42,013 bases of DNA from a virus, in IMG/VR virus record IMGVR_UViG_3300025009_000208, one strand, 5' to 3'. The first letter of the stretch is position 1. Each line of letters opens with the position of its first letter. The notes below the pieces were generated by a model that was given only the letters and a program-made list of their open reading frames with translations, was not told the origin of the DNA and did not search any database. Below are positions 163 to 42,013 of the stretch, in pieces. The position numbers and the translations under genes are program-made.

Positions 163-181
163 GAAAGAAGGTGATTAGAAA

Positions 182-1923: not shown

Positions 1924-1961
1924 GTCTTGACTTTTAACTATCACCATGATTAAATCATATA

Positions 1962-2327: not shown

Positions 2328-2361
2328 TATGTGCAATATCTTCTGTGATTTGCACCATTAG

Positions 2362-2398
2362 CTAGGAGGATTATATTACTCACTACATCTTCTCCTAG
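2362..2398 (+). promoter_or_regulatory. 9-bp hairpin that contains the only AGGAGG upstream of the 2407 gene
   Basis: CTAGGAGGA (2362-2370) pairs with TTCTCCTAG (2390-2398), including one G-T wobble, around a 19-nt loop. No T tract follows. Confidence 0.4.
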
Positions 2399-2406
2399 AA
2401 AAACGA

Positions 2407-7545: not shown

Positions 7546-8100
7546 ATGGAAACTAAAAAAGTCATAGGCAAACCATTTAATAAAGGAAATACCCCTTGGA
7601 ATAAAGGTTTGAAAGATTACAATCTTGGACACCCTAACTATCTAAAAGTTCAAACCAAAAAGACGAGATTGAAAATACGCAAAAAACTTCTAGGTATTAA
7701 AAGAAGTCCTGAAACTATTGAGAAAGTTAGACAAGCAAATCTAGGTTCGAAAAGCCACCTCTGGGGTAAGGTGGGATTCTGGAAAGGGAAGCACCGACCT
7801 AATATGATGGGGGAGAAACACTTTAATTGGAAAGGTGGAAAAGGCAAAGAGCTACACAGGGTAAGAACTTCTCTTGAATATAAACTTTGGAGAGAGTCAG
7901 TCTTTGAAAGAGATAACTATATCTGTCAGATGTGTGGAAAGAGAGGTGGGGACTTGGAAGCACATCACATATTTCCTTTTTCGGACTTTCCTGAATTGCG
8001 TTTCGCTATCAATAACGGAATTGCTTTATGCCTCAGTTGTCATGCTAAAATGGATAAACATAGGAGATTGAAAGGACAAAAAATAAATGGCAGCAATTAA
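7546..8100 (+). CDS. HNH endonuclease with N-terminal NUMOD-like repeats
   Basis: GNTPWNKGLK-type repeats, then CQMCGKRGGDLEAHHIFPF...NGIALCLSCHAKMD. Confidence 0.8.
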   Translation: METKKVIGKPFNKGNTPWNKGLKDYNLGHPNYLKVQTKKTRLKIRKKLLGIKRSPETIEKVRQANLGSKSHLWGKVGFWKGKHRPNMMGEKHFNWKGGKGKELHRVRTSLEYKLWRESVFERDNYICQMCGKRGGDLEAHHIFPFSDFPELRFAINNGIALCLSCHAKMDKHRRLKGQKINGSN

Positions 8101-11935: not shown

Positions 11936-12132
11936 TGAAAGAAAACAAAATAAGATTCGCATTTTATGCTTTTATAGGAATATTCGGATTTTTATTGCTT
12001 ATTGTTGATACAACTCCAGGGCACAGATTGACAGATCATCTTGGTTTCTTCAAAGAAAATCTTGACGCAGTAGAAGGAGTCATCTTTATATTCTTTTCAG
12101 GATTTGAAATAGGGAAGCTGAAGCAAAAATGA
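11935..12132 (+). CDS. Small membrane protein
   Basis: TAATG overlap with the previous gene. 65 aa with FAFYAFIGIFGFLLLIV and VIFIFFSGF. Confidence 0.55.
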   Translation: MKENKIRFAFYAFIGIFGFLLLIVDTTPGHRLTDHLGFFKENLDAVEGVIFIFFSGFEIGKLKQK

Positions 12133-12464
12133 GTGATCCATCACAATTAAAAGCACAAAGAGAGGCTATGGAAAAGCAGCGTTTTGGTTTTACTCGTGCT
12201 GAAGTAATTGCAGCCAAAGGTAATAAATGTGCCATACCACTTCAATACCCTGGAGATTTTCATGAAGGTGATCTTGTTATTGATCATATCAAGGGTGGGG
12301 GTAGGCATGACACCGAGATGGGAATGTTTGTCCAGGGTAAAACTCGCAGCATGAGTAATCTTCGGGTGCTTTGTAGGCGACATGCAGGAATGATAGATAG
12401 ACTAGACTTTACAAAAGGAATTGGTCATAATACTAAGGGTAATCCTAATAACCCATCACAATGA
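12129..12464 (+). CDS. HNH-like endonuclease
   Basis: GDLVIDHIKGGG ... SNLRVLCRRHAG, a His ... Asn ... His arrangement. ATGA overlap with the previous gene. Confidence 0.5.
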   Translation: MSDPSQLKAQREAMEKQRFGFTRAEVIAAKGNKCAIPLQYPGDFHEGDLVIDHIKGGGRHDTEMGMFVQGKTRSMSNLRVLCRRHAGMIDRLDFTKGIGHNTKGNPNNPSQ

Positions 12465-18397: not shown

Positions 18398-18430
18398 ATA
18401 CTACACTATGAATTATTAAATGTCAATAGG
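18398..18430 (-). promoter_or_regulatory. Leftward promoter CCTATTGACA-N11-ATAGTGTAGTAT (TTGACA-N17-TAGTAT)
   Basis: Reverse strand has TTGACA at 18426-18421 and TAGTAT at 18403-18398. It shares the extended motif with the promoter at 22597-22629. Confidence 0.55.
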
Positions 18431-18812
18431 GGAATTGATGAGTAATAACACCATTAACTATTGCATTTTTTGCAATAGAGTCCATACTTTGTATATGAAA
18501 AGAAAATATTATAATGCCCTGAAAATAATAAGGAGAGATGATTATACCTGCCAAGACTGCAAAAAAGCGTTTGAATTGAATCAGTTATTGGTTCATCACA
18601 TAGACAAAAACCCAAGCAATAATTCTGATTCAAATTTGATTACCCTCTGTCAATATTGCCACAAGGCACGACATGGACTTCTTGCTGGTAAAAGAGAAGA
18701 TGTTGCTGAAATGAGAAGTATGGGACTAACACTTCAAGAAATTGGGGATGTCTTAGGAGTTACTCATCAAAGAGTTCAACAGATAGATGCCAGAAATAGG
18801 AAACTGACATAG
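18420..18812 (+). CDS. HNH endonuclease fused to a sigma70-region-4-like HTH
   Basis: CIFCN...CQDCKK...LLVHHIDKNPSNNSDSNLITLCQYCHKARHG, then MRSMGLTLQEIGDVLGVTHQRVQQIDARNRKL. It lies on the opposite strand to the surrounding arm. Confidence 0.75.
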   Translation: MSIGELMSNNTINYCIFCNRVHTLYMKRKYYNALKIIRRDDYTCQDCKKAFELNQLLVHHIDKNPSNNSDSNLITLCQYCHKARHGLLAGKREDVAEMRSMGLTLQEIGDVLGVTHQRVQQIDARNRKLT

Positions 18813-20292: not shown

Positions 20293-20955
20293 TTAGCCCT
20301 GGGAGGAATTAGACTTATCCCCTAAATTTAATAACCGTTCTTGTCTTTGAGTTCTTAAATTGTATGTTCTTTGTGGTAATACCTCGTTCAGTATTTTGAG
20401 TGAATCTTTGTTTGAGTAATAGAGTTTGAAGAAAATTTGAAGTTTCATCACATCCAAGTATTTTAGTGTTTTCTTTTTGCCGTCATAATCAATACACCAA
20501 GCATCGGGATTGACCAGATTTATGTAGTGAAAAAGTTCATCCCTCCATAAAACCTCACAAACCTTGTCTATCAATACCCAACCTTTTTGGTTTTGCTTTA
20601 TTCTTGGTGACTTGTTACCCTTTTCCAAATCTTCTAAAATATAAACACCGCAATCTCCTATTCTTCCAATGTCGTATTTGATGTATTCTTCTAATTTAGA
20701 TTCTGGTATTACTAGAAATCTATGAGTAAACAAACCTAAAGCACCGTTAAACTGGCTTGTTAATCTATCAAAAGTATCATATTCCGTCTTTATTTCAAAA
20801 TAAGTGAAGGAATCTTTATCTAAAATAACAAAATCAGGTCTTAAACTACCACCAAAAGAAGTAAATTCAAATTGTTGGAAATTACCGTTACCTTCAAAAA
20901 CTTTAGCCAAAACTTCCTTATAATACTTTTCGTCTTTTTTAATTATATCTGCCAT
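20293..20955 (-). CDS. MmcB-like PD-(D/E)XK nuclease-fold protein
   Basis: RPDFVILDKDSFTYFEIKTEYDTFDRLTSQ...FLVIPESKL shows D-x13-E-x-K spacing, as in PD-(D/E)XK enzymes of the MmcB type. Its start codon shares one base with the tnpA-like stop. Confidence 0.5.
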   Translation of the reverse strand: MADIIKKDEKYYKEVLAKVFEGNGNFQQFEFTSFGGSLRPDFVILDKDSFTYFEIKTEYDTFDRLTSQFNGALGLFTHRFLVIPESKLEEYIKYDIGRIGDCGVYILEDLEKGNKSPRIKQNQKGWVLIDKVCEVLWRDELFHYINLVNPDAWCIDYDGKKKTLKYLDVMKLQIFFKLYYSNKDSLKILNEVLPQRTYNLRTQRQERLLNLGDKSNSSQG

Positions 20956-21500
20956 TAAAATAACCTCCCTTGGGTGAAATCACCAATAGTCTGGTGCTTA
21001 TTCCCATAAACATTAAATTGAAAAACATCCTTACCTTGTTGCTCTAAAATGTAGCGTTTCACCGCATCCTGTGATACGTGACCAGCACTACCAATGTAAT
21101 ATCCTCTTGCCCATAGGAAAGGAAACTTTTTGTAATGTATTCGGTAGCCAAGATAATTTAGGTCTAAAAATGCCTGTCTTAATCTTCGTGAAGTATTGCC
21201 TTTAATCTTCCTCACTATCTCGTAGGGTGTATGGGTAGGTAAGGCAGAAACAAATAAGTGAATGTGGTCTGGCATTACTTCCAATGCCAACATTTCTAAA
21301 TTCAATTCTTTACACTGTTCCCCGATAATTTGCTTTAGAAAATCTGCTACCTTACCCACCAGTAATTTCTTCCGATATTTTGGTATCCAGACAATGTGGT
21401 AATTGATATTGTGTTTACAATGGCTACCACTTTTGACACTAGATATTTTGACTTGAATATCGTAGGTTTTAGGATTAAAGTGTGGGTATTGGTTAAGCAT
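20955..21500 (-). CDS. tnpA: IS200/IS605-type Y1 HUH transposase homolog (TnpA-like)
   Basis: NYHIVWIPKYRKKLL; HUH motif in MPDHIHLFV; C-terminal ARGYYIGSAG and catalytic-Tyr helix AVKRYILEQQ. Confidence 0.85.
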   Translation of the reverse strand: MLNQYPHFNPKTYDIQVKISSVKSGSHCKHNINYHIVWIPKYRKKLLVGKVADFLKQIIGEQCKELNLEMLALEVMPDHIHLFVSALPTHTPYEIVRKIKGNTSRRLRQAFLDLNYLGYRIHYKKFPFLWARGYYIGSAGHVSQDAVKRYILEQQGKDVFQFNVYGNKHQTIGDFTQGRLF

Positions 21501-22596: not shown

Positions 22597-22629
22597 ATAT
22601 TACACTATAGATACCTATTTGTCAATAGG
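22597..22629 (-). promoter_or_regulatory. Leftward promoter CCTATTGACA-N11-ATAGTGTAATAT (TTGACA-N17-TAATAT)
   Basis: Reverse strand has TTGACA at 22625-22620 and TAATAT at 22602-22597. The ATG codons at 22595 and 22589 follow immediately. Confidence 0.55.
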
Positions 22630-22994
22630 ATTCTGATTAAACCTGAATCATATTTCCGGTGGCAAGATGGACAAAGCATGATATAGTTCTCTCTATCTTT
22701 AGTATATTTCTTGCCATGTATCAGGGCATATTCAAATCTTTTCGGTTTCCGTAATGTTATCCCGGCTGCATTTTTTCTCGGATAAATACAATCAGGATTC
22801 TCACAATGGGTTGCTCTTTTCCAACGATACCGGATGTAAGTATGCAAACTCGTGTAGGTAATATTGTTTCCTTTCCACCTTGCACTTTTCTCACCCGATT
22901 TGCCCACCATCCAGGGAGCACCTGTCCTTTTATGTGCTTCACTCATTTTTTTACGAGTCGTTTTTGAATGTTTAGTATGAATCCTTCTCGCCAT
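22605..22994 (-). CDS. HNH endonuclease
   Basis: THCENPDC...EYALIHGKKYTKDRENYIMLCPSCHRKYD. Confidence 0.6.
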   Translation of the reverse strand: MARRIHTKHSKTTRKKMSEAHKRTGAPWMVGKSGEKSARWKGNNITYTSLHTYIRYRWKRATHCENPDCIYPRKNAAGITLRKPKRFEYALIHGKKYTKDRENYIMLCPSCHRKYDSGLIRILLTNRYL

Positions 22995-28894: not shown

Positions 28895-31804
28895 ATGGCA
28901 ATCACACTTAGAAGCTTATTATCAAAATACAAAAGCATAAGCAGACCTTCCGTTTTCTCTGGGAGTTCTTCTACATATTCCTCGGTTGCTAAAAAACAAA
29001 CTTCGGCAGAGGATGCAATTATTGATGATCAATATGAGCAGGGTAACTTATCGGCTGAAAGTTATCTTACAAAACTTCAAGAAAGATTGGGCAGATCTGG
29101 TAATACACCACTCCAAAGTCAGAATTTAACTGAAAAGATTAGGAATGTTCAACAAGATGTAACTGATGCTGATTATTCAAGGGCTTATCAGGGAGGACAA
29201 ATTGGTTCAAAGGAAATGTATGATTACGAAAAAGCCAAGTTGGATAAAATGACCGAACCCGGATCTCAGGCTTATATCAAACAGGAACAAAAGGTTCAAG
29301 GGCTTTTAGATAAGTCAGAAAGAGAAACAAGGTCATCTGCCAGAACTGCAAGAATGTTAGAAATTTCACAGATGCCGGAAGATAGTTCTGCAAAAACCTG
29401 GGAGAAATATAATCTATATGATCAGCTTGAACAACAGGCTAGGGTTGATGGAGATATTTCACAGGCTGATCAATTGGCTATTCAGAAAAACAATTATGCT
29501 TCTGCTGCGAAAAGAGCTGACATCAACGATCTTATTACCGGAACAAAACTCCAAACTTCTGAAACATTTGGTGCGGGAATAGGAGTTCCAACCGCAGAAG
29601 GTGGACAAAGTTTATATTCCGAATTAACAGGAGGTAAGATTGGTATAATTTCTCCAACTGTTAAAAACGCACTTGAGAGTTTAGATCGCCAAAAGAAAAC
29701 ATTGGATCGTTTATATCAAAGCAAGGATGATAAAAACGCTATGGTTTCAACTTATGAACAGGCGGTCAATGCTGCTACTGGAGATCAGAAAACCCAACTC
29801 ACAATTGCTCTTAATAATCTAAAGAACGATATTGTGAGTATTGATAATCAGATTAGTAATACAACCCAAAATATCACAGACACAGTTTATAAGATTCAGG
29901 ATGCAAACGGCAAAGCTGCTGCATCTTCTTTCAAACAAGAATTGAGAAAGAAACTCGCTGAAGCTGCCAAGAAAGAAACAGAGATTGAACAGAAATTCCA
30001 AAAAGGGGAAATCAATAAAATTGATTATATAGCTTCGGCAATTCAAGCAGCAGAACTTAAAGGATTTTTGTATGAACAGGCATCAAATGGGTTTGCTCAA
30101 TTTGGGGATGATGATAATGCTCAAAAGTATTTGGATAGTATGAATGAAACTTTGGATCTACATGAAGGGCTTATTACTTATGCTCAAAATATTGACGATT
30201 ATGAACCCATTATGGTTGATAAAGATAGCAATCTGACAAATATTCATGGGGATAAACTTCGCAAGGGAGATATTGTTTTGAGTGATGTTCGGGATTTGAA
30301 AATATCTGGGAGATGGAATGAAAACTATGCAAATGTTGATGGGGTTTTTCACAGAATTAAATACGATTCCAAGTTCCTTGATAAGGATGGGTTCTTGATC
30401 CCCGGACTTAGTGGAAGTGATACTGCGGAAATATTGGGTAATGCCTATGTTGATACAGTTAAAAACGGAGTAGTTTCACAGGAAAGAATCAGATTTCTTA
30501 AATCTCCGGAAGGAATTAAGGCAGTAACTGAAACCGAAGCACAGAAATTACTTAATGAACAAGCTGCTATTCAGAATCAAAAAGGTGAGTTGATCGTTAA
30601 ACCTAATACTCCTGTTAAAAATTTAATGAAATCAGTAGAAGATATAAAAAGCTTTGTTCAGGGGGTTGTGCCAGGATATAAACAATATACCAACACATCT
30701 CCTAAATCTTTGAATATTGTTGATTATTATAAGAAAAATCTTTCACCGATTGTGCAAAAAGGAGTTGAGGGAGCTAAAAACATATTCCAGCAAGGAAAAG
30801 AATTTGCTTCAACGGCAATCAATAAAGCAAAGGATATTTTCCGGGGAATGAATATCTTTAATCCTCCTACTGTTAGTGGAAAACAGTTAACCCCAGGAGA
30901 GAATCAAACTCCATACGATAAAGAAATTAACTCTATTTTCGGAGAAGAAGCTACAGATGCTGCTAGGGTTTTGAGATATACAGACGAGAATGGGGCAGTT
31001 AAGGGAGAAAATACTAGATACCAGATTGGGACTGAAGTTGATATTCCTAATCGTGATGGTTCAATTGATCGTGGACTTTTTAGAATTAACTCAAATACAT
31101 TTAAGGATTTCCAGAGAAGAAAAGGTCAACTTATGGCACAGTATGGAATTAAATCCTGGGATGACATGCTTAATCCTTTGAAAAATACAGCTATGGCTAA
31201 GATTATAAAAGATGAGCAGGGATGGGCTGCTTGGTATGCAGCTCCTGAAGATTTAAGATCTGGTAAAGAAGCAACTGTTTCGGCAAGTCAGAACTCAAGA
31301 GATCTCAGAACCAAGAATATTGAATTAGCTCTCGGACTTCCTGAAGGTTCTTATAAAAAGGGAATTGCTGTTGATCAGGCTGCAATTGATAAAGCGTATA
31401 GAAGCAATAACCAGGACATGATTAAACTTATGAAAGAAGAAGGATTTAATCCTTCACCAGAGCCTACACCAATGCCCACCGGAACTCCAACTCCTTCTTA
31501 TCAGGGATCTTCTTCAGGTGGTAACTCATCTTGGAATCCACCTAGAATTGAGATTCCTAAAATCAATATTCCTCAGATTGCATCAAATATTGGACAGGCT
31601 GCACAAAAAGCATCAACTGCGGTTAAAAATTACTTTACCCCAACCTCTAATGCAGGACAGAATTTCTGGTCAACACCTGTTGCTTCTGGACTTGCCAATA
31701 TCCAAAGAGCGGTTCAAAATGTTACTCAACCTGTAGTGAACAAAGTTTCACAGGCTGTAAATACCGCAAAGAGTTGGGTTAGCAATTTGTTCAAAAAGAA
31801 GTAA
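28895..31804 (+). CDS. Large (969-aa) virion protein with coiled-coil N-terminal two thirds and a lysozyme-like segment
   Basis: DGSIDRGLFRINSNTFKDF...GWAAWYAAP resembles the DYGIFQINS..W core of lysozyme-fold / lytic transglycosylase enzymes. It lies between the portal and scaffold genes. Confidence 0.45.
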   Translation: MAITLRSLLSKYKSISRPSVFSGSSSTYSSVAKKQTSAEDAIIDDQYEQGNLSAESYLTKLQERLGRSGNTPLQSQNLTEKIRNVQQDVTDADYSRAYQGGQIGSKEMYDYEKAKLDKMTEPGSQAYIKQEQKVQGLLDKSERETRSSARTARMLEISQMPEDSSAKTWEKYNLYDQLEQQARVDGDISQADQLAIQKNNYASAAKRADINDLITGTKLQTSETFGAGIGVPTAEGGQSLYSELTGGKIGIISPTVKNALESLDRQKKTLDRLYQSKDDKNAMVSTYEQAVNAATGDQKTQLTIALNNLKNDIVSIDNQISNTTQNITDTVYKIQDANGKAAASSFKQELRKKLAEAAKKETEIEQKFQKGEINKIDYIASAIQAAELKGFLYEQASNGFAQFGDDDNAQKYLDSMNETLDLHEGLITYAQNIDDYEPIMVDKDSNLTNIHGDKLRKGDIVLSDVRDLKISGRWNENYANVDGVFHRIKYDSKFLDKDGFLIPGLSGSDTAEILGNAYVDTVKNGVVSQERIRFLKSPEGIKAVTETEAQKLLNEQAAIQNQKGELIVKPNTPVKNLMKSVEDIKSFVQGVVPGYKQYTNTSPKSLNIVDYYKKNLSPIVQKGVEGAKNIFQQGKEFASTAINKAKDIFRGMNIFNPPTVSGKQLTPGENQTPYDKEINSIFGEEATDAARVLRYTDENGAVKGENTRYQIGTEVDIPNRDGSIDRGLFRINSNTFKDFQRRKGQLMAQYGIKSWDDMLNPLKNTAMAKIIKDEQGWAAWYAAPEDLRSGKEATVSASQNSRDLRTKNIELALGLPEGSYKKGIAVDQAAIDKAYRSNNQDMIKLMKEEGFNPSPEPTPMPTGTPTPSYQGSSSGGNSSWNPPRIEIPKINIPQIASNIGQAAQKASTAVKNYFTPTSNAGQNFWSTPVASGLANIQRAVQNVTQPVVNKVSQAVNTAKSWVSNLFKKK

Positions 31805-34302
31805 TGGGATATTTTGATAATATAAAATTTAATGATATTACAGTAGGAACTCCGAAAAGCACACCTTCGGCTACACCTTCATTTCAACAAAAGGTTGAAA
31901 TAAATAGGGCGAGATTAACTACTACTCCTGCACCCATACCACAACCAGCACCAGCTCCCACAGTTCCACTTAAACCTATGGTGCAACAGCCTAAAACAGG
32001 AATGGGTAAAGTATTCGCTGCACTCAATAAACCCTCAGAATGGACACAGAGTTTATTAACCAAAGGTAAAACTTATGAAGAAGCTTTGGGAAATGAAAAT
32101 AGCGGTTATCATAAATTTAATGAATTTGTTGCCAAAACCAATCTATTAAGAATTATTCCTTCTTATAAGAAAAAACAGGATGAAAAATGGGAAGCAGCAA
32201 TGAAAAATGATACTGCTAAAAAGATTGCAGGATCTGCAGCTAGATTTGTTTTTGATCCATTAAACTTTATTCCTTTCGGAAAGGTTGTTAAGGTGGTGGG
32301 TAAAGGTATATCTAAAGTTGATGATGTGGTCAAGGTTTCTAAAATGGCAGATAAAATGATGGATTGGGCAAGAACAACCCCCGCAATTTATAAAGTTGCT
32401 GAAAAGTTTAGTCCGTTTTTCAGGAATCCAGAGTTCGGTAAGTTAATGAAAGATTCGGAAGGAATTACAAGTAATAGATTAAATGATCTTTATAAGTTAA
32501 TTAAAACTACTGCTAAAAACATGTCCCCGGCAGAACAAACTAGAATTGGTCAGCTTCTTGAGGGTGGAATTGATACAAGTGCGAAATACGAAAAACTAGC
32601 TGCTCCCCTGAGAGAATTAACAGAGAAGATCGGAAAAGAGGCTGTTGATTTGGGAATACTCAGTCGTAAGAGTTTCAATACTTACAAAGGAGTTTATATG
32701 AAACACATCTTTGAAAAGTATATTGATAACGCTGGGAAACAAGGATTTGTTAGGCGTGTAGCTCCGGGAATTGGGCAGCAATTTAGTAAAATGCGTAAAG
32801 GAGCTGAAGGTTATATCAGAGAATTTAGTGCACCCACATTTGCAGGAATCGGAGCAGGGATTAAAGATATTGAAGCTGCTAAGTTTTATAAGAAGATAGC
32901 TTCAGATTTTGGAGCTGGAATTGAAGTTGTTAAGAAAGGAAGAAAGATTGTTAATAGAATTGTTCCAGAAGGATTTGAATATGCACCCAAAGCTATTGAA
33001 AATAGTAAGATAGCTAAGTTTTTCAAGAACAAAGCTTTACCAAATTCAATTATTGAATATATAAACAAAACCTCTCAGATTAAAAAGGTTAGTGGATGGG
33101 ACAAACTACTTAATGCTTGGAAGGCTGGTAAGACAATCTATAATCCCGCTTACCATATCAGAAATGTGGTTTCTAATCAGATCTTATCAGACATGAGCAC
33201 AGGCAAGGGACTGGTTCAAACTGCATCAGACTATATCGGTGCTGTTAGACAATATATTGGGAAAGGAAATCAGAAGTTTGTTAATGCAGCAGAAGCTTTT
33301 GGGCTTATTAAACAGAAAAGATTTGGTGCAGCCTTAGATGAGTTTCTTGATGCTTCCAAAGTTGTAGAACAAAGTAAAGGAGCAAAGATTTTGGACTTTC
33401 CAAGAAAACTTCAGACTGTTACTGAAGAAACTTCCAAGCTTAATGTATTTAAGTCATGGATAGAGAAATTAGCTAGAAAAGCAGGTAAGTCAGTAGATGA
33501 TGCCCTAAAAGATCCAGAGATAGTGCAGAAAGCGGTAAGTAAAGCGGAGGAGGCAATCTTTTCCCCTTATCGGTTAAGTCAGACAGAAAGAGGTTTAGCA
33601 AAAGATTTAATTCCATTTTATTCATTTACTAGACAGGTAGTTCCTTTTACGGCTAAAACTCTTGTTACTAATCCAGCAAGAATTGCTAAATATGGAAAGA
33701 TGAAGCGGGAAGTTGAGAACTTTAGCAAAGATCAGGCTAGACCGGGATACGCAGAAAACTTCATTAGGCTTCCCTGGAAGAATAAACAGGGTGAAAATGC
33801 TTATCTTGATCCTACCTATATCTATCCTTTTGGGAATGTTTTTGAGGGTGGACAGAACGGAAAACTTCCTTTTGGGCTTGGATTTAATCCCATCTTTACA
33901 GAAGTTGCACAACAGATGGCAAACAAAGATTTCTACTATGATCAGCCAATAGCCAAGTATGAATCAAAGGCAATGCGTGGAGAAAATCTCAAAGCTCGTG
34001 CTGCTCATGTGTTTAGAACTGGTGCTCCACAGTTTGTGAGTAATGCAATCTCAAAGATACTTCCGGCTGCCACAGGACAAAAAGACTTTGCAGGTAGAGA
34101 AAGAAGTATGGTTCAAGCTTTAGCAGATACAATCATGGGTATTAAAACATCTTTTATTAGTGAGGATAAGGGAGTTTTGGATCAGTTTTATCAACAAAAT
34201 AATATTATGCGAAGTAAGCAAAACGATATTAAGAAGGTTATGCAAGACAATTCTATGTCAGATGAAGATAAGAGAATGTTGCTTGAAAAGATACTAAAAT
34301 AA
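31804..34302 (+). CDS. Large (832-aa) virion protein, unknown function
   Basis: TAATG overlap with the previous gene. Pro/Thr-rich N-terminal tract. No recognisable catalytic motif. Confidence 0.45.
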   Translation: MGYFDNIKFNDITVGTPKSTPSATPSFQQKVEINRARLTTTPAPIPQPAPAPTVPLKPMVQQPKTGMGKVFAALNKPSEWTQSLLTKGKTYEEALGNENSGYHKFNEFVAKTNLLRIIPSYKKKQDEKWEAAMKNDTAKKIAGSAARFVFDPLNFIPFGKVVKVVGKGISKVDDVVKVSKMADKMMDWARTTPAIYKVAEKFSPFFRNPEFGKLMKDSEGITSNRLNDLYKLIKTTAKNMSPAEQTRIGQLLEGGIDTSAKYEKLAAPLRELTEKIGKEAVDLGILSRKSFNTYKGVYMKHIFEKYIDNAGKQGFVRRVAPGIGQQFSKMRKGAEGYIREFSAPTFAGIGAGIKDIEAAKFYKKIASDFGAGIEVVKKGRKIVNRIVPEGFEYAPKAIENSKIAKFFKNKALPNSIIEYINKTSQIKKVSGWDKLLNAWKAGKTIYNPAYHIRNVVSNQILSDMSTGKGLVQTASDYIGAVRQYIGKGNQKFVNAAEAFGLIKQKRFGAALDEFLDASKVVEQSKGAKILDFPRKLQTVTEETSKLNVFKSWIEKLARKAGKSVDDALKDPEIVQKAVSKAEEAIFSPYRLSQTERGLAKDLIPFYSFTRQVVPFTAKTLVTNPARIAKYGKMKREVENFSKDQARPGYAENFIRLPWKNKQGENAYLDPTYIYPFGNVFEGGQNGKLPFGLGFNPIFTEVAQQMANKDFYYDQPIAKYESKAMRGENLKARAAHVFRTGAPQFVSNAISKILPAATGQKDFAGRERSMVQALADTIMGIKTSFISEDKGVLDQFYQQNNIMRSKQNDIKKVMQDNSMSDEDKRMLLEKILK

Positions 34303-35155: not shown

Positions 35156-36073
35156 ATGGCAGAAATGACACGCACACTAGGCACAGATACGATTGAAACT
35201 TACAATGTTCGTAAAACATTGGAATTCGCTAAACCTAAATTGGTTTATCCTCAATTCGGTGCACCCGATTTGACATTGCGAAGAAAAGGACAAACCGCAT
35301 CCTGGTTGAAATTCACAAAGATGACAGTCCCAAGCACAGTCTTGGATGACTCTCCTACATGGAGTCCAGCAACTGTTGCAGATTCTACTGTTACAGCTAC
35401 TTTGGAGCTTTGGGGAAATGGAGTAACCTTGTTAGAAGCCTTGAAGGAAACTTCCTTCTTGGACTTGCCTGATGAGTATAAAAAACTTGTTGGACAAAAT
35501 GCAGGTGAAACTATCAACGAAAAAGTCAGAGATGTTTTAGTAGCAGGAACTAGCGTTAATTACGCAAATTCCAAGACAGCTAGAACCAACCTTTTGACCT
35601 CGGATACGATTGACCTTAATGACATCTTGGATACTGTGGAATCTCTTGAAACCGCAGATGCTCCAATGATCGGAGATAATTATGTCGCTATAATCTCTCC
35701 TTATGTCAAAACCCGCTTAATGAAGGACACAGACTTCAGAGAAGCTACTAGATACTTAGCAAAAGACAACTCCCTGTTTACAGGTGAAGTTGCTACTATT
35801 GATGGTGTAAAGTTCGTAAGAACTTCTACAGCTCCATCCATTGCAAACTCAGGATCAAATTCAACAGTTAGTTATGTTGAACAAACGATCATTCTAGGAG
35901 AGGGTGCTTACGGAATAGCTAGGTTACTACCTGGCGACTTTGATGTTATCGTTACACCTCCGGGTGGACATGGTGATGAATACAAAGTTAAAACCGCAAT
36001 CGCTTGGAAGGCATATCTCAAGTCCGTTATCTTACAGCAAACCTTCATGAGAAGGCTTGAGTCCGCAAGATAA
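35156..36073 (+). CDS. Major capsid protein (HK97-fold type)
   Basis: 305 aa with strong SD GGAGGTGA. The position after the scaffold gene and the sequence style (LWGNGVTLLEAL..., AIISPYV..., GVKFVRTS...) are typical of HK97-like capsid proteins. Confidence 0.7.
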   Translation: MAEMTRTLGTDTIETYNVRKTLEFAKPKLVYPQFGAPDLTLRRKGQTASWLKFTKMTVPSTVLDDSPTWSPATVADSTVTATLELWGNGVTLLEALKETSFLDLPDEYKKLVGQNAGETINEKVRDVLVAGTSVNYANSKTARTNLLTSDTIDLNDILDTVESLETADAPMIGDNYVAIISPYVKTRLMKDTDFREATRYLAKDNSLFTGEVATIDGVKFVRTSTAPSIANSGSNSTVSYVEQTIILGEGAYGIARLLPGDFDVIVTPPGGHGDEYKVKTAIAWKAYLKSVILQQTFMRRLESAR

Positions 36074-36160: not shown

Positions 36161-36427
36161 ATGTTAAGACCTAAATCAAAAAAAGAAATCTTGCCTTTTA
36201 AGGCAGTATTTGGCAAACGAAAGTTTGTCTTTCCTATGGAATATGCTACTGAGAATGTGGATGGTAAGAAAGGAATGTTGATTTCCATCAACAACAAAAA
36301 CACATTCGTTCCATGTGGTGAGCCTGTTGACCTTACCTGGGAGGTATGGTCTTTGTTGAAAAACATAGGCAGGGTTGCCCGGATTGTAAATGTAGCAATT
36401 GACGAAGATGACAAAAAGAAATTATGA
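36161..36427 (+). CDS. Hypothetical protein
   Basis: The track ORF starts at GTG 36086. I chose ATG at 36161, downstream of the hairpin GCCCTA-GCCTTA-TAGGGC (36127-36144). The start is uncertain. Confidence 0.35.
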   Translation: MLRPKSKKEILPFKAVFGKRKFVFPMEYATENVDGKKGMLISINNKNTFVPCGEPVDLTWEVWSLLKNIGRVARIVNVAIDEDDKKKL

Positions 36428-37493
36428 GGAGAACCTCAATTGGTATGGTTGGACTACGCCATTTTCAGGCTACGGAATAGTAAGCCTTGAATATATGGTT
36501 GCCCTTGAGAGGCTTACAGGTAAAATTTCTGTGGGTTGGCAGAGGAGAGAACCGGATAATTCTTCAGAATGGAGGATCTTATCCACAGAACAACAGAACT
36601 TAATTCATTACAAACCTTTTGATAAAGCTAGACTTGGGATAATTAAAACAACTCCAGAGCTTTTTCATAACAATATTTCAGATATTAAGATCGGATATAC
36701 AATGGTTGAAAATAGTCGGGTAGGTAAGAATTGGGTTGACAAATGTATGGCTATGGATGCCCTATTTGTTCCTTCTAAATACTTAGTGGATGTGTTCAAA
36801 GAAAGCGGATTTACAAAACCAATCTATACAGTTAAACAGGGAATCAATCCTGAACTTTTTAAGTATGTAGATCGCAGGAGAGTTGAAAGGAAACCCCGAG
36901 AGAAATTCATATTTGCTACTGCCGGATGGCTTGATGAAAGAAAGAATTGGCAAGAAATGGTAACTGCTTTTACTTCAGAATTTGATAATAACGAGCCTGT
37001 AGAATTATGGCTCAAAAACTCCAATAATATGTTCGGTTACGAACAACCTGCAGACGAAAGGGTAAAACTAATTGACGAACTTCTTTCTTTTGAGCAGATG
37101 CAGATCTTCTACAAGAATATAGATTGCTTCCTTTTCTGTTCCAGAGCTGAGGGTGCGGGTATGCCCGGGAGAGAAGCTATGGCAACAGGGCTTCCTGTAA
37201 TCATTACCAATTGGTCTGGTATGGCTGATGTGGCAGATTCCCGATACAACTATCCCCTTGATCCTGTGGCAATTGACATGCCTGATGCCAGGATGCAGGA
37301 GGAACAACCAGGATTCCAGGCAAGAATTAGTGTTGAGGAGCTTATGTATTGGATGCGTTACATTTACGAGCACCAGGATGAAGCCTATGAAAAGGGTAAA
37401 TTAGCCTCAGCTTGGATGCACAGGGATTGGAATTGGGAAGTTTGTGCAGAAGATATGCTTGACACTTTGGTTAAAAACTTTGATTATAAATAA
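36408..37493 (+). CDS. GT-B glycosyltransferase (GT4/GT1-like)
   Basis: CFLFCSRAEGAGMPGREAMATGLPVIITNWSGMAD is a typical E-x7-E region of retaining GT4 enzymes. ATG at 36408 (track start is TTG at 36399). Confidence 0.75.
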   Translation: MTKRNYEENLNWYGWTTPFSGYGIVSLEYMVALERLTGKISVGWQRREPDNSSEWRILSTEQQNLIHYKPFDKARLGIIKTTPELFHNNISDIKIGYTMVENSRVGKNWVDKCMAMDALFVPSKYLVDVFKESGFTKPIYTVKQGINPELFKYVDRRRVERKPREKFIFATAGWLDERKNWQEMVTAFTSEFDNNEPVELWLKNSNNMFGYEQPADERVKLIDELLSFEQMQIFYKNIDCFLFCSRAEGAGMPGREAMATGLPVIITNWSGMADVADSRYNYPLDPVAIDMPDARMQEEQPGFQARISVEELMYWMRYIYEHQDEAYEKGKLASAWMHRDWNWEVCAEDMLDTLVKNFDYK

Positions 37494-37495
37494 GT

Positions 37496-38107
37496 ATGGA
37501 TGAATTTATTGCATGGAATGATTGGTGGAGTCTAAAATATCGCTTCAAGATGGGCGAGGGCGTGAGATATTTCTCAACTAAAATTGCTCTTAATTTGTTT
37601 CACTTCAGAGGAGGCACTAATATAGTTGAAACAGGCACGATTAGAATGGCTGACGATATGAATGGTGGAGGCTATTCTACCCTTCTTTACGGAGATTACG
37701 CACAACACTATGACAAGCACTTTTGGACTGTTGATATTCTTCCGGAGGCAATAGAACTTTCAAAGAAAGAAACGGAAGGGTTCAATAAGAATACAAATTT
37801 CGTTACAAGTGATTCGGTTGAGTTTCTCAAGAACTTCCCGGAGAAAATTGACCTTCTTTATTTGGATTCAATGGATTGCCCAGAGAATGACGAGGCTGAT
37901 TCTCCTCATCTAATAGCTTCACAAGAACACCAGTTAAATGAAATCAAAGCTGCATGGGACAAATTAACTGATAAATCTGTAATCCTTTTGGATGATAACA
38001 ATTTTACAAACGGAGGAAAGTGTAAGCTTTCGGTTCAGTTCTTAATAGATAACGGATGGACACCTTTGATGGCAGATAAACAGGTTCTATTTATTAAAAA
38101 TGCTTAA
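37496..38107 (+). CDS. Class I SAM-dependent methyltransferase
   Basis: NIVETGTIRM...GGGYST and IDLLYLDSMD match the motif I and post-I pattern of small-molecule/sugar O-methyltransferases. Confidence 0.6.
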   Translation: MDEFIAWNDWWSLKYRFKMGEGVRYFSTKIALNLFHFRGGTNIVETGTIRMADDMNGGGYSTLLYGDYAQHYDKHFWTVDILPEAIELSKKETEGFNKNTNFVTSDSVEFLKNFPEKIDLLYLDSMDCPENDEADSPHLIASQEHQLNEIKAAWDKLTDKSVILLDDNNFTNGGKCKLSVQFLIDNGWTPLMADKQVLFIKNA

Positions 38108-38654
38108 ACTAAATTTGGGTTGTTGGAAAAGGAAGTTGCCGAAATTTACAAATGTAGATATTTGTAACCTACCTGGCGTTGATTATGTCAGGAATATTGA
38201 CGACCTTTCCTGTTTTGATGATGCAACTGTGGAACTAATTTATGCCAGTCATTGTTTTGAATACTTTGATCGTGAAAAAGGTGCCCATGTATTAAAGGAG
38301 TGGAAAAGAGTTTTAGCTTCAGGAGGAACGCTTCGGATTGCAGTTCCTGATTTTGAAAAGATTATCAAAGCTTATAAATTCTTTGGAGATATAAATAGAA
38401 CTCTTGGATTGTTATATGGAAAGATGCAGATTGATACAGTTAATGGTAGTAAAACCATATATCACAAGACAGTTTATGACTTTGATTCCTTAAAAGAAAT
38501 GCTTGAAGCTGCCGGATTTGTAAATGTTAGAAGGTATGATTGGAAGAAAACTATTCATAAAGATTATGACGACCATTCTCAAGCTTATATTCCGCACATG
38601 GATAAAGAGCATGGGGTGTTGATGAGCTTAAATGTGGAGGCAGACAAACCATGA
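38100..38654 (+). CDS. SAM-dependent methyltransferase (type 11-like)
   Basis: LNLGCWKRKLPKFTNVDI ... ELIYASHCFEYF ... VLASGGTLRIAVPDF. Confidence 0.65.
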   Translation: MLKLNLGCWKRKLPKFTNVDICNLPGVDYVRNIDDLSCFDDATVELIYASHCFEYFDREKGAHVLKEWKRVLASGGTLRIAVPDFEKIIKAYKFFGDINRTLGLLYGKMQIDTVNGSKTIYHKTVYDFDSLKEMLEAAGFVNVRRYDWKKTIHKDYDDHSQAYIPHMDKEHGVLMSLNVEADKP

Positions 38655-39655
38655 AAATACTTTATCTATCGTGCCATTCAATTTTAGAATATGACGAAAC
38701 CAAGCTTTTAACTGAGCTTGGACATGAGGTTTTCAGTCATGGAGCATATGTTAATCCTCAAGCTCCGCAGGATATTAAACGACCTGCAACTGATGCTAAA
38801 TATAACGAACATATGGCAGTTCTTGCTACCCGATTTTCAAAAGACAAGCTAAGTGAGGAGATGATTGAATGGGCTGATACTATTATTGTGCAGCATGTGC
38901 CTGAATGGATTATGAATAATTGGGATCAGATCAAGCACAAAAATGTAATTTGGAGAACAATTGGACAGTCAACAGCAGCCACAGAAATTCAACTTGCTGA
39001 CTACCGCTATGAAGGGATGAAGATTGTCAGGTATTCTCCAAAGGAAAAGAATATTCAAATGAATTTGGGAGAAGATGCCATGATTCGTTTCTACAAAGAT
39101 CCGGAGGAATACAAAGATTGGAATGGAAATGTGGAAAGGGTTATTACTCTTGGTCAAGCCATTCAAAAGCGTGGTGCTTTCTGCAATTACCAGGCATTTG
39201 ATGCTGCAACTGCACCTTATCCAAGAATTGTGTTTGGAGCTGATAATGATGACTTGGGTGCTATGTGGGGTGGGCAGTTAAGCTATGAAGATTTGAAGCG
39301 TGAACTTCGGGATAACCGAGTTTTCCTTTATACAGGGACTCAACCTGCTTCTTATACGCTTGGATTTATTGAAGCTATGATGACCGGAATACCCATTGTT
39401 GCGGTTGGTAACGATATTGGAAATAGTCTTTTTAAGCAAGAACAAAATACCTACGAGATCCCGGAAATAATAGATAGTGGTCTTAGTGGCTTTGTTAGTG
39501 ATAGCATAGAAGTGTTGAGTGATAAAGTTGGACAGCTTTTGAAAGATGAACCCCTGAGAAAACGCATCTCAGAGGCGGGTAGGGCTAGAGCCATAGAGCT
39601 TTTTGGCAAGGAAACAATTAAGAAACAATGGGAAACCTTTTTGAATAATTTATAA
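38651..39655 (+). CDS. GT-B glycosyltransferase
   Basis: RVFLYTGTQPASYTLGFIEAMMTGIPIVAVGND is a C-terminal nucleotide-sugar-binding-type region. Confidence 0.6.
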   Translation: MKILYLSCHSILEYDETKLLTELGHEVFSHGAYVNPQAPQDIKRPATDAKYNEHMAVLATRFSKDKLSEEMIEWADTIIVQHVPEWIMNNWDQIKHKNVIWRTIGQSTAATEIQLADYRYEGMKIVRYSPKEKNIQMNLGEDAMIRFYKDPEEYKDWNGNVERVITLGQAIQKRGAFCNYQAFDAATAPYPRIVFGADNDDLGAMWGGQLSYEDLKRELRDNRVFLYTGTQPASYTLGFIEAMMTGIPIVAVGNDIGNSLFKQEQNTYEIPEIIDSGLSGFVSDSIEVLSDKVGQLLKDEPLRKRISEAGRARAIELFGKETIKKQWETFLNNL

Positions 39656-39657
39656 AT

Positions 39658-40578
39658 ATGTTATCAATCTGCACCAGTATCTATAGGGAAACCGACAGCC
39701 TAGAGGTATTTGTCAGAACAGTATTCGGGAACGCTTCAACTCCTTCAGAAATAGAAATTATTGTAGCTAATGATGAAACCTCACCAGCAACCGCAGATCT
39801 TCTTAGCAGACTAGCTTTAGAGTTTCCCAACCTTCGTTCTTTTAGTAGAACTAAAACCCAAAGGATTAAGTTTTTAAGAAATCGTGTTGAATTTTATAAG
39901 AGAGAAAATATTTTTAGTCCAGAGGAATTGACAAATATGGATGAGAGAATAAACCAATATGAAAGCGGGGAGCTTGAAACCCTATGGTTTCCCCCGGGAG
40001 TTCTATATAACAAAGCAGCTAAGATGGCGAGTGGGGATGTTCTTCTTTTAGTCCCGGCTGATTATATTTGTTTCGGAGATTTGAGTAAAATTTACGAAGC
40101 TTTCAAGAATATTCCTGGAGATATTGTTGGACATTTTGATTGGCTTGACACAACCTCTCTTGATCCAATGCCTGATATTCTAAATATTGTGCGAAAGACC
40201 AAACCTAAAGATGAATTTCACGCAGTTACAAATGATTGGTTACAACAGGCTTTTGCCAATAATGTTGGTCATGTTTGGCAACAACATGGTATGAGAATGG
40301 TCAAGAAGGATGTATTTGAAAAAGCAGGGTGCTATGATGGAAGGTGGTTTACAAGGTCGTGGAATGAAGATAGTCTTAATAGAAGGATGGAGCAATTCGC
40401 AAATGCTCACAGGCTTATGGAACTAGATCAAACTAAATCATTTAATCCTTACTTCGGAACTCTGAGGGGTAAATCCTGGAGAGAACCAAACTACCTCTGT
40501 TCTTTTTATTCAGGTTTACCCGAAATTCATAGTCAGTTTTTGAGTAGAATCCAATTCTATTTAGAAAGGGAAGCATGA
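39658..40578 (+). CDS. GT-A (family 2-like) glycosyltransferase
   Basis: LSICTSIYRETDSLEVFVRTV...EIEIIVANDETS is a typical GT2 N-terminus. Confidence 0.6.
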   Translation: MLSICTSIYRETDSLEVFVRTVFGNASTPSEIEIIVANDETSPATADLLSRLALEFPNLRSFSRTKTQRIKFLRNRVEFYKRENIFSPEELTNMDERINQYESGELETLWFPPGVLYNKAAKMASGDVLLLVPADYICFGDLSKIYEAFKNIPGDIVGHFDWLDTTSLDPMPDILNIVRKTKPKDEFHAVTNDWLQQAFANNVGHVWQQHGMRMVKKDVFEKAGCYDGRWFTRSWNEDSLNRRMEQFANAHRLMELDQTKSFNPYFGTLRGKSWREPNYLCSFYSGLPEIHSQFLSRIQFYLEREA

Positions 40579-41690
40579 AAACAATTCAAATGTTCAACGC
40601 TAAAATATCTCACAATGTAGCCCCCGCATTGTCTGAACTTATGGCGGGTGGATTTATCGGGGAAGGCGTAAAGGTTGTGGAATTTACTAAGAAACTTGAA
40701 AGCTACTTCGGCTGTAAAAACTTATTGCTTCTTAATAGCTGCACAAGTGCAATTACTCTTGCAGCCAGGTTAATTGGACTCAAGCCAGGAGATGAAGTCA
40801 TTTCTACCCCTTTCACAATGATCGCTACAAGCGTGGCTCTGATGCCTTTTGGAGTTAAGATTGTTTGGGCTGATATTAACGAAACGGATGTGAATATCTC
40901 TGTGGATAGCGTGAGGAAAAGTATTACCCCCAATACAAAAGCCATTGTTGTAGTGCATGTTGGGGGGTTGCCTTGCAATATGGAGGGATTGTCCAAACTT
41001 GGGCTTCCAATTATATCTGATTGTGCACATGCGATTGACACTTGCTATCAGGGTGAGCACATTTCCAAATGGGCTGATTACTCGTGCTTTTCCTTCCAGG
41101 CAATCAAGCAATTGAATACCGGAGATGGGGGAGCACTTGTGATCAGAGATGATGCTCAATTTGCCCGGGCTGAGAAGCTTAAATGGTTTGGTATGAGCAG
41201 GAAAGTCCCGGAGGGAATGACCAGACTTGAGCATCAAATGACTGCGGATGTGCCTGAGTGGGGTTATAAATTCCATATGAATGATATTGCAGCTACAATC
41301 GGATTAGCAAATTTTGAGTGCCTGGATGATGTAACAAGTAGTAATGTGGATAACGCAGAGTTTTACATGAAAGAATTACAGGGAATCAAAGGTATAACTC
41401 TGCCCACAATTGAGAAAGATGCTTTACCTGATTGGTGGGGATTCTATATTTTTACAGATGAAAGACCAAAATTGATGGATTTTCTTAATAAGAAAGGAAT
41501 CATCACAACTCCAATGTGGAGAAGAAATGACCAATATTCTGCTTTCAAAGAGGACTTCCCGAAGCTACTTCCAAATATGACCGCCCTTCAAAATAAGATT
41601 CTATTTATTCCTTCGGGCTGGTGGCTAACTAAAAAAGACCGAGAATATATAGTAGAATGTATTAAGGAATTTTCAAATGCGAATCAATAA
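40575..41690 (+). CDS. DegT/DnrJ/EryC1/StrS-family PLP-dependent sugar aminotransferase
   Basis: GDEVISTPFT..., ISDCAHA, and FSFQAIKQLNTGDGGAL (PLP Lys context). Confidence 0.85.
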   Translation: MKTIQMFNAKISHNVAPALSELMAGGFIGEGVKVVEFTKKLESYFGCKNLLLLNSCTSAITLAARLIGLKPGDEVISTPFTMIATSVALMPFGVKIVWADINETDVNISVDSVRKSITPNTKAIVVVHVGGLPCNMEGLSKLGLPIISDCAHAIDTCYQGEHISKWADYSCFSFQAIKQLNTGDGGALVIRDDAQFARAEKLKWFGMSRKVPEGMTRLEHQMTADVPEWGYKFHMNDIAATIGLANFECLDDVTSSNVDNAEFYMKELQGIKGITLPTIEKDALPDWWGFYIFTDERPKLMDFLNKKGIITTPMWRRNDQYSAFKEDFPKLLPNMTALQNKILFIPSGWWLTKKDREYIVECIKEFSNANQ

Positions 41691-42013
41691 AGATACCAGA
41701 GGAAAAGGTTTTTACGATTTATTCCCAAGAGAATGTGGGCAGACAGATATTTCCTTCAGTTACCCTGGCACAATTCGTGCCTTCCATATGCACAAAATTA
41801 AGACAGAATGGTTTTTCTGTGCTGGTGGAATTATTAGGCTTGTTTTAACAGATCCTTTTGAGGAGTTTTTCATGGAGAGAGGAGATATGGTTGAAATCAA
41901 ACCTGGCAGATGGCATGGTTTTCAGATATTGGGAGATGAACTTGGGGTAATGCTTGAGCACTCTACACATAAATATGAGATGGATAACCCTGACGATTTT
42001 CGCAAACCTTATA
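41677..42013 (+). CDS. RmlC-like cupin sugar-nucleotide epimerase/isomerase, 5' portion (continues at 1-162)
   Basis: ATG at 41677 overlaps the aminotransferase end by 14 nt. DTRGKGF...ISFSYPGTIRAFHMH...IKPGRWHGF matches the cupin pattern of dTDP-4-dehydrorhamnose 3,5-epimerase-like enzymes. Confidence 0.7.
   Translation, partial: MRINKDTRGKGFYDLFPRECGQTDISFSYPGTIRAFHMHKIKTEWFFCAGGIIRLVLTDPFEEFFMERGDMVEIKPGRWHGFQILGDELGVMLEHSTHKYEMDNPDDFRKPY
41887..42013. repeat. Second copy of the 127-bp terminal overlap (identical to 1-127)
   Basis: Direct comparison of both ends. Confidence 0.95.

Follow-up and report, generated by a model that had tools for sequence, protein, structure and literature searches.

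To our knowledge, virion glycosylation encoded by a phage has so far been shown only for a few mycobacteriophages; besides these, it is known from giant viruses. Freeman et al. reportedly described it in 2023 for the mycobacteriophages Che8, Corndog and Myrna, where O-linked glycans are said to have been located by mass spectrometry at the C-termini of capsid and tail-tube proteins, with Corndog gp38 and Che8 gp110 as essential glycosyltransferases (GTs); the abstract of the mycobacteriophage virion-glycosylation study reportedly spoke of little evidence in other phages. Corndog modifies its capsid and tail tube by means of its GTs and a methyltransferase (PMC11600133; PMC12363180). Among the giant viruses, Mimivirus uses a cluster comprising a methyltransferase, a pyridoxal phosphate (PLP)-dependent aminotransferase, a dehydratase and GTs to make 2-O-methyl-N-acetylviosamine for its virion fibrils, and the glycosylation clusters of the Megavirinae combine clade-specific content with a conserved genome position (PMC10117803). 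Here, we describe an island of GT and sugar-tailoring genes in the viral record IMGVR_UViG_3300025009_000208 (42,013 nt, the whole of which is called the window below), which is flanked by the major capsid gene and tail-fibre-like genes and which, in our estimate with about an even chance, encodes a pathway glycosylating the phage's own virion proteins.

The island extends from position 36408 to the end of the window and continues at 128–3372, with all genes on the plus strand. It comprises 8,851 bp or 21% of the genome once a 127-bp repeat is removed, in line with the about 8.9 kb and one fifth of the genome given by an earlier inspection of the letters (the sequence-only reading), whose listed genes were all recovered where it had placed them, each call being backed by a profile or structure search. 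The inventory amounts to five GTs (three GT-B and two GT-A), two methyltransferases, a DegT aminotransferase, a CapF-like cupin, a short-chain dehydrogenase/reductase (SDR) and an HNH gene. Adjacent genes overlap by 4–20 nt or sit 1–38 nt apart, and scans of the island for internal promoters or terminators remained at background level, with none convincing. Membrane helices were predicted in none of its proteins (19-residue hydropathy maximum at most 1.57, with no segment above 1.6), and neither a flippase nor a polymerase, phosphoglycosyltransferase or Gtr-type membrane protein was found in the island. Upstream, the locus is anchored by the major capsid gene (35156–36073, plus strand; 305 aa; phrog_1357 major head protein, E = 1e-40) and downstream by p184, a tail-fibre-like virion protein (3398–3952, plus strand; phrog_5417, E = 4e-13, besides weaker PHROG matches of the tail-fibre and virion-structural kind). 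The claimed site between capsid and tail is thus borne out, with a weak annotation of the tail-fibre-like flank genes.

The likeness to Corndog consists in GTs and an O-methyltransferase of the phage's own beside the major head gene, with capsid or tail subunits as the proposed target. In Corndog, a methyltransferase and three GT genes (gp35-38) lie just upstream of the major head gene (gp41), whereas the window island follows the capsid gene. The Corndog GTs measure 206–289 aa, as compared to 334–364 aa for the core of three GT-B enzymes in the window, and the island, with its 8.9 kb, adds an aminotransferase, a cupin and an SDR to the mycobacteriophage set. Further differences are a capsid protein without the C-terminal acceptor tail of the mycobacteriophages, a groundwater source, and nearest isolates that are Bacillus podophages. 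The parallel to mycobacteriophages drawn by the sequence-only reading therefore holds for the gene arrangement, as in Corndog, but does not extend to sequence similarity.

With Mimivirus, the locus shares a methyltransferase, a PLP aminotransferase (L136 in Mimivirus), an SDR-type enzyme (R141) and GTs, the Mimivirus product being a methylated 4-amino-4,6-dideoxyhexose. Giant viruses, i.e., Mimivirus relatives and chloroviruses, keep tailoring enzymes and GTs in one cluster, as does the window (PMC10117803; PMC9614988). The Megavirinae clusters, however, hold 6–33 genes including a true 4,6-dehydratase and belong to viruses of eukaryotic hosts, whereas the window represents a 42-kb tailed phage without dehydratase or nucleotidyltransferase, so that a virus-supplied first committed step (the 4,6-dehydratase) is absent from the island; the homology seen between the window and the giant-virus systems is at the superfamily level. 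Bacterial O-antigen and capsule loci (e.g., CapE/F/G for L-FucNAc, or the AtmS13 and CalS13 aminopentose pathways) draw on the same enzyme families and likewise combine conserved flanks with swapped cargo, but the island has no initiating phosphoglycosyltransferase, flippase, polymerase, transporter or membrane protein and forms part of a structural operon of a phage. Phage-borne GT-A and GT-B enzymes similar to those of the window are also found in GtrABC and in S. aureus TarP, the latter being a structural match of one island protein (p285, see below). These are one- to three-gene morons of temperate phages, with Gtr being membrane-bound, in contrast to a soluble 12-gene locus inside the structural module of a phage for which no integrase was found. 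By analogy, the window system appears to work like the mycobacteriophage and Megavirinae systems while being a member of neither.

A comparison with relatives, comprising eleven IMG/VR loci with capsid proteins 63–95% identical to that of the window and additional ENA, Logan and GTDB contigs (L numbers below), revealed a conserved core with exchanged cargo at one and the same site in about a dozen related genomes. The major capsid gene is followed by a small open reading frame (ORF) and then by the GT gene GT4a in every relative with downstream sequence (L001, L003, L004, L006, L008-L011, L018, L021). At the other end, p184 follows the cassette in L003, L004, L008, L010, L018 and L034, with one small ORF intervening in L004 and L018, and the partial contig L034 has the window's gene order from GT4b to p184. 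Retained are GT4a, MT24, p321 and, usually, GT4b, and the sugar-tailoring genes between them are swapped. The minimal cassette of about 4 kb is found in L004 and L011, where GT4a is followed by MT24, GT4b and p321; in L003, it is followed by GT4b, three GT2-like genes interspersed with one methyltransferase gene, and p321. The window and L034 carry GT2, DegT, cupin, SDR and p285 between GT4b and p321, with MT11 present in the window only, and L010 has the window's cargo, but with a Methyltransf_11 gene in place of the SDR. A VOC-fold protein replaces the cupin in L001 and L018, the former additionally encoding a hexapeptide acetyltransferase; L008 has an RmlD-like reductase and another DegT, and L006 features extra methyltransferases. 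An ORF of 672–684 aa is present in each of L006, L008 and L021, which Pfam assigns to GT2 plus GT4 in L006 and L008 and which is not annotated in L021. Over all relatives, the cargo comprises hexapeptide acetyltransferases, additional methyltransferases, proteins of the VOC/glyoxalase fold, fusions of GT2 with GT4 and an RmlD-like reductase. Since the tailoring genes are exchanged between lineages, different lineages would display different glycans, a pattern reminiscent of bacterial O-antigen loci and of the clade-specific fibril clusters in Mimivirus relatives.

The locus is therefore of fixed position and variable content and common to the whole phage family, with the HNH gene alone being a recent insertion. 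A recent acquisition of the island was rejected, as its G+C content (0.36–0.41) is the same as in the remainder of the genome and no relative lacks the locus; moreover, divergence in the island genes is roughly on a par with that in the adjoining structural genes. The idea that synteny might reveal a recently acquired mobile cassette consequently had to be given up: only the content varies. A little short of an even chance, in our estimate, is the broader proposal that this family of ~42-kb groundwater phages keeps a serotype-like, hypervariable locus that dresses the virion in lineage-specific glycans of methylated amino-deoxysugars.

Among the transferases, GT4a (36408–37493, plus strand; GT-B fold, family GT4; Glycos_transf_1, E = 1.9e-11; phrog_2170, E = 6e-39) is the one island gene that all examined family members share, its copies following the capsid gene at 40–89% identity. 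GT4b (38651–39655, plus strand; GT-B; Glycos_transf_1, E = 8.8e-8, and Glyco_trans_1_2) belongs to the conserved core and is 60–85% identical in L001, L003, L004, L010, L011 and L018. Against the Pfam model Glycos_transf_1 with its cut-off of 26.4, GT4a reaches 44.2 and GT4b 32.3 bits. As read from the sequence, the EX7E motif is kept in GT4a (E-GAGMPGR-E) and its first glutamate is apparently replaced in GT4b; in p321, the positions aligned to the two glutamates are D and N. The GT2-like GT-A enzyme (39658–40578, plus strand; Glycos_transf_2, E = 3e-8, matching in its N-terminal part only) is variable cargo, found at 39–77% identity in L001, L010, L018 and L034.

The two remaining transferases were identified by predicted structure, and the sequence-only reading's "3 to 5" transferases accordingly became five, the 321-aa protein being predicted as GT-B and the 285-aa DxD protein as GT-A. 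The latter, p285 (1066–1923, plus strand), has no family match in profile searches and 18 homologues in total, nearly all from the same phage family, but features an invariant DxD (D84, D86). Its AlphaFold2 model (predicted local distance difference test, pLDDT, 93) matched TarP, STIV A197, B4GALNT1 and RmlA in Foldseek with template-modelling (TM) scores of 0.40–0.45, and judged by this model p285 is a divergent, GT2-like GT of the GT-A fold. The RmlA match raised the possibility that p285 is the missing nucleotidyltransferase, which is disfavoured by the invariant DxD, the GT2-like N-terminal TLYHRR and the lack of a GxGxR motif.

The core protein p321 (2329–3372, plus strand; named after its mechanical 321-aa call) represents a family without a Pfam model: its 87 homologue clusters are all metagenomic, and none of the 87 carries a Pfam domain. 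The AlphaFold2 model, built on 84 of the 87 clusters, reached a pLDDT of 95.4 and matched BshA, SdgB, MshA, PimA, PglA and GtfA in Foldseek at E values around 1e-10, with TarM also among the matches. The top fold matches are thus GT4 enzymes and protein O-GlcNAc transferases, and among viral proteins GTs of giant viruses and archaeal viruses matched best. By sequence, the p321 profile matches the GT4 enzyme HepE (E = 0.0016), and a profile–profile comparison with GT4b gave a probability of 1.9%, too weak to use, so that structure was used instead. According to the model, p321 is a GT-B fold GT. Homologues of p321 were also observed in cassettes of phage types unrelated to the window family, namely together with GT9, GT4, GFO/IDH/MocA, DegT and hexapeptide genes in a 204-kb contig (L015, 3111–13983), as two paralogues with two SDRs and a PolB in a 61-kb contig (L017, 5314–13947), and with four hexapeptide transferases and a sulfotransferase in a 53-kb contig (L020, 4846–15365). 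For a capsid gene adjoining the cassettes of L015 and L020, no capsid similarity was detected.

On the sugar side, the DegT/DnrJ/EryC1 PLP-dependent aminotransferase (40575–41690, plus strand) is variable cargo and matches PF01041 with 258.7 bits vs. a cut-off of 19.8. Its nearest solved structures are 4zwv/4xau (AtmS13; E = 4e-63), CalS13 (1e-52) and ArnB (3e-36), and the lysine of its SFQAIK motif coincides in the alignment with the corresponding lysine of 4zwv, the best match. AtmS13, CalS13 and ArnB are C4 aminotransferases acting on nucleoside diphosphate (NDP)-4-keto sugars. Compared to all NCBIfam equivalog models, every score stayed below its cut-off and no substrate was assigned, but the alignments suggest that DegT probably acts at C4 of an NDP-4-keto sugar. 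The 123-aa cupin (plus strand; Cupin_2, E = 6e-8) spans the junction, with its 5′ part at 41677–42013 and its continuation at 128–162; the 3′ part as it appears at the window's start, 1–162, repeats the window end in bases 1–127 and has its stop codon at 160–162. The gene was confirmed in contigs that are unbroken at this junction. The protein had been called RmlC-like, a designation that we reject in view of RmlC matches at E ≥ 0.1; it matches instead the C-terminal cupin of CapF/WbjC-type proteins (WbcJ, Cap5F) as well as metal cupins and features an HxH..E..H motif.

The short extended SDR (182–1069, plus strand; 295 aa; Epimerase, E = 5.6e-37) is of the NDP-sugar epimerase or 4-ketoreductase type. 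It keeps GxxGxxG, the serine and YxxxK, and its alignments to solved SDRs break at residues 112–118, where it is about 23 residues short. In 4,6-dehydratases, an Asp-Glu pair after the active-site Thr serves as acid/base pair. The SDR sequence (CSLTNKW-LNPYTITK) shows no such pair after the aligned catalytic serine, and the protein scores 91.3 bits against TIGR01181 with its cut-off of 365.1, so that an assignment as 4,6-dehydratase or UDP-glucuronate decarboxylase was rejected for want of the catalytic acid/base residues. Neither a true 4,6-dehydratase nor a nucleotidyltransferase motif was found anywhere in the island, in agreement with the sequence-only reading, and the NDP-4-keto sugar must consequently come from the host. 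Since L010 has no SDR but does have DegT and the cupin, the SDR is not needed to feed DegT and probably makes a second, reduced sugar. Of the two S-adenosylmethionine (SAM)-dependent methyltransferases, MT24 (37496–38107, plus strand; class I, Methyltransf_24 of the TylF/CmcI-like O-methyltransferase clan; PF13578, E = 1.3e-8; phrog_24975, E = 8e-32) belongs to the conserved core, with copies in L001, L004, L010, L011 and L018, and its paralogues in L001 and L003 also match O-methyltransferase and RMNT_CmcI models. MT11 (38100–38654, plus strand; Methyltransf_11, PF08241, E = 2.5e-6) is present at this position in the window lineage only, MT24 being followed directly by GT4b in relatives; the Methyltransf_11 gene that L010 carries at the site of the SDR is a different one. 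A search of solved structures for methyltransferase substrates was uninformative.

From these homologies we infer the following route. The pathway would start from an NDP-4-keto sugar supplied by the host, in the simplest case an NDP-4-keto-6-deoxyhexose, which the CapF-like cupin may epimerise or isomerise and onto whose C4 the DegT enzyme may place an amino group. The short SDR could reduce or epimerise at C4, yielding a second deoxysugar, and MT11 could methylate an amino or hydroxyl group. The five soluble GTs (GT4a, GT4b, p321, GT2 and p285) would then assemble a short glycan on a cytoplasmic acceptor, with O-methylation of the glycan by MT24. By position and by analogy only, this acceptor would be capsid and/or tail-fibre proteins, modified before or during assembly.

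Of the two kinds of acceptor that come into question, virion proteins, at about an even chance, are favoured over precursors of the host envelope, which we regard as unlikely. This preference is based on the embedding of the locus between capsid and tail genes throughout the family, on a cargo that diversifies like a surface-antigen locus, and on precedents that match, Corndog in layout and Mimivirus in enzyme logic. In addition, the island is situated inside a same-strand block reaching from terminase to tail genes, so that its products probably arise along with those of the capsid and tail genes.

Two elements next to the island deserve attention as potential acceptors. The capsid protein, of which a relative's copy matches PF25209 Phage_capsid_4, has its closest isolates in the Bacillus megaterium phages of the genus Pagevirus (Page, Pony and relatives), which are presumably podophages; the capsid protein of Page is 29% identical, and no glycosylation genes follow the capsid gene in phage Page. 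Residues 223–240 of the window protein (window positions 35822–35875) form a Ser/Thr (S/T)-rich loop, TSTAPS(I/V)(A/S)NSGSN(S/N)(S/T)V, with core residues that do not vary within the family (10 relatives compared), and the equivalent loop of Page is not S/T-rich. Speculatively, and as a weak pointer, this loop is a candidate glycan acceptor site. Among the capsid peptides, TSTAPSIANSGSNSTVSY is of special interest with regard to a possible modification. The second element is the small ORF of about 88 aa at 36161–36427 (plus strand), which starts 87 nt past the capsid stop and overlaps the start of GT4a by 20 nt. The interval of 335 nt between capsid stop and GT4a, as reported in the sequence-only reading, is not empty, as it holds this ORF. 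A counterpart of similar size occupies the same site in all ten aligned relatives (L001-L004, L006, L008, L009-L011, L018); sequence similarity is clear in eight of these and weak in L006 and L008 (14% and 26% identity when aligned, without a BLAST hit). The ORF has no match in Pfam, PHROG or PADLOC and no assigned function; it could encode a decoration protein, an adaptor or a glycan acceptor.

Several observations weigh against a virion-glycosylating pathway. Unlike its mycobacteriophage counterparts with their acceptor tail, the capsid protein does not end in an S/T-rich tail (C-terminus ..FMRRLESAR). Homology to the mycobacteriophage system was not found either: a BLASTP search of the full set of window proteins with Corndog gp35-gp39 as queries returned no match below E = 0.1, and Mycobacterium phages were not among the 163 phage records matching GT4a. 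Late co-expression of the island is something we infer from gene order only, the in-frame TAG in p321 (see below) implies that one core transferase may be made at a low level, and the phage itself is known from metagenomes only. Finally, the structural matches include soluble TarM (GT4) and TarP (GT2), which glycosylate teichoic acid inside the cell, and the absence of membrane proteins is therefore also compatible with an envelope target.

The alternative that survives best, albeit an unlikely one, is accordingly that during infection the enzymes modify envelope glycans of the host from the cytoplasmic side (teichoic acid, S-layer or O-antigen precursors) and thereby alter the cell surface, for example so as to block superinfection or the binding of progeny to debris. 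Not only TarM and TarP but also PimA and PglA, all enzymes of envelope precursors, are among the structural matches of p321 and p285, and GT and sugar genes beside the tail-fibre genes of pelagiphages and cyanophages have been read in this way (PMC7029224). Furthermore, with the host supplying the precursor sugar, the pathway already taps host envelope metabolism. On the other hand, the island has none of the flippase, polymerase, phosphoglycosyltransferase or Gtr-type membrane functions, in every relative it occupies the middle of the structural block and does not stand apart as a moron, and a surface change, if the genes are expressed late, would come too late to benefit a lytic phage. The ORF scans (e.g., Pfam and PHROG), covering every ORF of at least 180 aa, revealed no integrase, as the sequence-only reading had maintained, and no repressor, an IS200-type Y1 transposase being the sole recombinase-like gene. 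Classical serotype conversion, with neither integrase nor membrane component, does not fit.

Less probable still, and improbable in our estimate, is that the island glycosylates another cytoplasmic target, such as a host protein or a small molecule, in the course of host takeover or counter-defence and without relation to the virion surface. GT4a narrowly passes the Pfam model GT4-conflict (27.2 bits vs. a cut-off of 26), and the fold matches of p321 include the small-molecule enzymes BshA and MshA as well as the protein O-GlcNAc transferases SdgB and GtfA. However, a fixed position between capsid and tail and an O-antigen-like diversification of the cargo are unexpected for an intracellular effector, and PADLOC gave no defence match save one weak match to a methyltransferase domain. 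A defence system as such was dismissed, as no PADLOC match was meaningful. Very improbable is a hypermodification of the phage DNA with sugars against restriction (of the T4, SP-15, TET- or ThyS-linked type): although T4 alpha-glucosyltransferase and a GT of Bacillus phage SP-15 are among the GT-B fold matches of p321 and multi-GT pathways for phage DNA glycans are known, the described pathways are defined by their acceptor-making genes (bioRxiv 10.1101/2023.12.21.572611), whereas the scanned ORFs, among them all of at least 180 aa, included no thymidylate-synthase-like hydroxymethylase, C5 cytosine methyltransferase, TET/JBP dioxygenase, DNA polymerase or nucleotide-metabolism gene, consistent with the earlier statement that a deoxynucleoside monophosphate hydroxymethylase and a phage polymerase are lacking, and the island is part of the structural, not the replication, module.

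If glycosylation of the virion holds true, the locus would be the first such system outside the actinobacteriophages and the first in a tailed phage with its own nucleotide-sugar tailoring, a small-scale counterpart of the Mimivirus fibril cluster. Provided that it does the same job, the trait would be older and more widespread than thought. As environmental phages live far from immune systems, shielding against antibodies could in that case not be the general purpose; conceivable alternatives are attachment to particles or to the surface of hosts, a shield against proteases or grazers, and recognition between competing phages. With its swapped cargo, the core also provides a ready-made set of glycan variants to compare, and the island represents a compact, soluble enzyme set with which rare methylated amino-deoxysugars could be made and attached. 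As a GT-B group without a profile model, the p321 family could moreover mark glycan cassettes in metagenomes.

One gene of the island stands outside the proposed pathway. The HNH homing-type endonuclease gene (1962–2327, plus strand; phrog_2340, E = 1.7e-17) is a mobile insertion, as deduced already by the sequence-only reading and now supported by close relatives without it: it is present in the window and L010 and absent from L001, L018, L033 and L034, where p285 abuts p321. Downstream of it, the p321 frame begins with ATG at 2329 and meets an in-frame TAG at 2359–2361, ten codons in, and the mechanically called ORF consequently starts at TTG 2407. The TAG lies in a two-codon insertion, TAG CTN, which is seen only in the window and in L010 (18287–18370), both HNH carriers; in relatives without the HNH gene, p321 is intact. 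The TAG was confirmed in four independent assemblies. Elsewhere in the genome TAG is an ordinary stop, with which nine of 60 ORFs end. Between the TAG and TTG 2407, no canonical start codon is available, and ten of the 15 codons of this stretch differ between the window and L010, all of the changes being synonymous, which argues that the stretch is translated. This pattern suggests stop-codon read-through as the simplest explanation, with another recoding event also being possible.

As for the genome as a whole, positions 1–127 of the window exactly repeat 41887–42013. This terminal overlap of 127 bp indicates a circular genome assembled at k = 127 with a true length of 41,886 bp instead of 42,013, and features across the junction are counted twice in window coordinates. 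The same phage was assembled at ~41.7–42.0 kb in at least 19 samples, one of them a groundwater metagenome (PRJNA268031). A single block of genes on one strand begins with the terminase genes (24851), crosses the junction and reaches to about 12992, and the region of 13–24 kb holds small genes, mostly on the opposite strand. The block comprises, in order, the large terminase (phrog_2), a 639-aa protein of portal size, two large proteins of unknown function, a scaffold-like protein, the major capsid protein, the island and the tail-fibre-like proteins; among the latter are a glycine-rich one, one of 1209 aa and a Gp53-like C-terminal domain. No tRNA genes were found in the genome, no RNA family in an Rfam scan of the window, and no recognisable DNA polymerase, primase or helicase among the scanned ORFs.

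Regarding the host, a CHAP endolysin and an XhlA-like protein are encoded in the genome and hint at a Gram-positive-type host wall. A genome scan for the host returned one relative in a Bathyarchaeia metagenome-assembled genome (MAG) and distant (27%) capsid proteins of Saccharibacteria prophages and nothing else, and the closest cellular homologues of DegT are at most 49% identical. The former is L021 (CAZQTZ010000030.1), a 16-kb contig of the family whose capsid protein is 77% identical to that of the window and which has been assigned to a 'Candidatus Bathyarchaeia' MAG; a further member of the family is listed as 'Candidatus Wunengus'. Both assignments are taken to be mis-binned phage contigs and not evidence of a host.

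The load of selfish elements is unusually high for a small phage. Besides the HNH gene of the island, HNH-type endonuclease genes occur at 7546–8100, 12129–12464, 18420–18812 and 22605–22994, giving five in 42 kb, and the IS200-like Y1 transposase is encoded at 20955–21500 on the minus strand. The two large proteins between the portal-sized and scaffold-like genes (969 and 832 aa; 28895–34302), for which no Pfam or PHROG match was found, have S/T-rich N-termini and, at 23–70% identity, are among the fastest-diverging proteins of the phage family.

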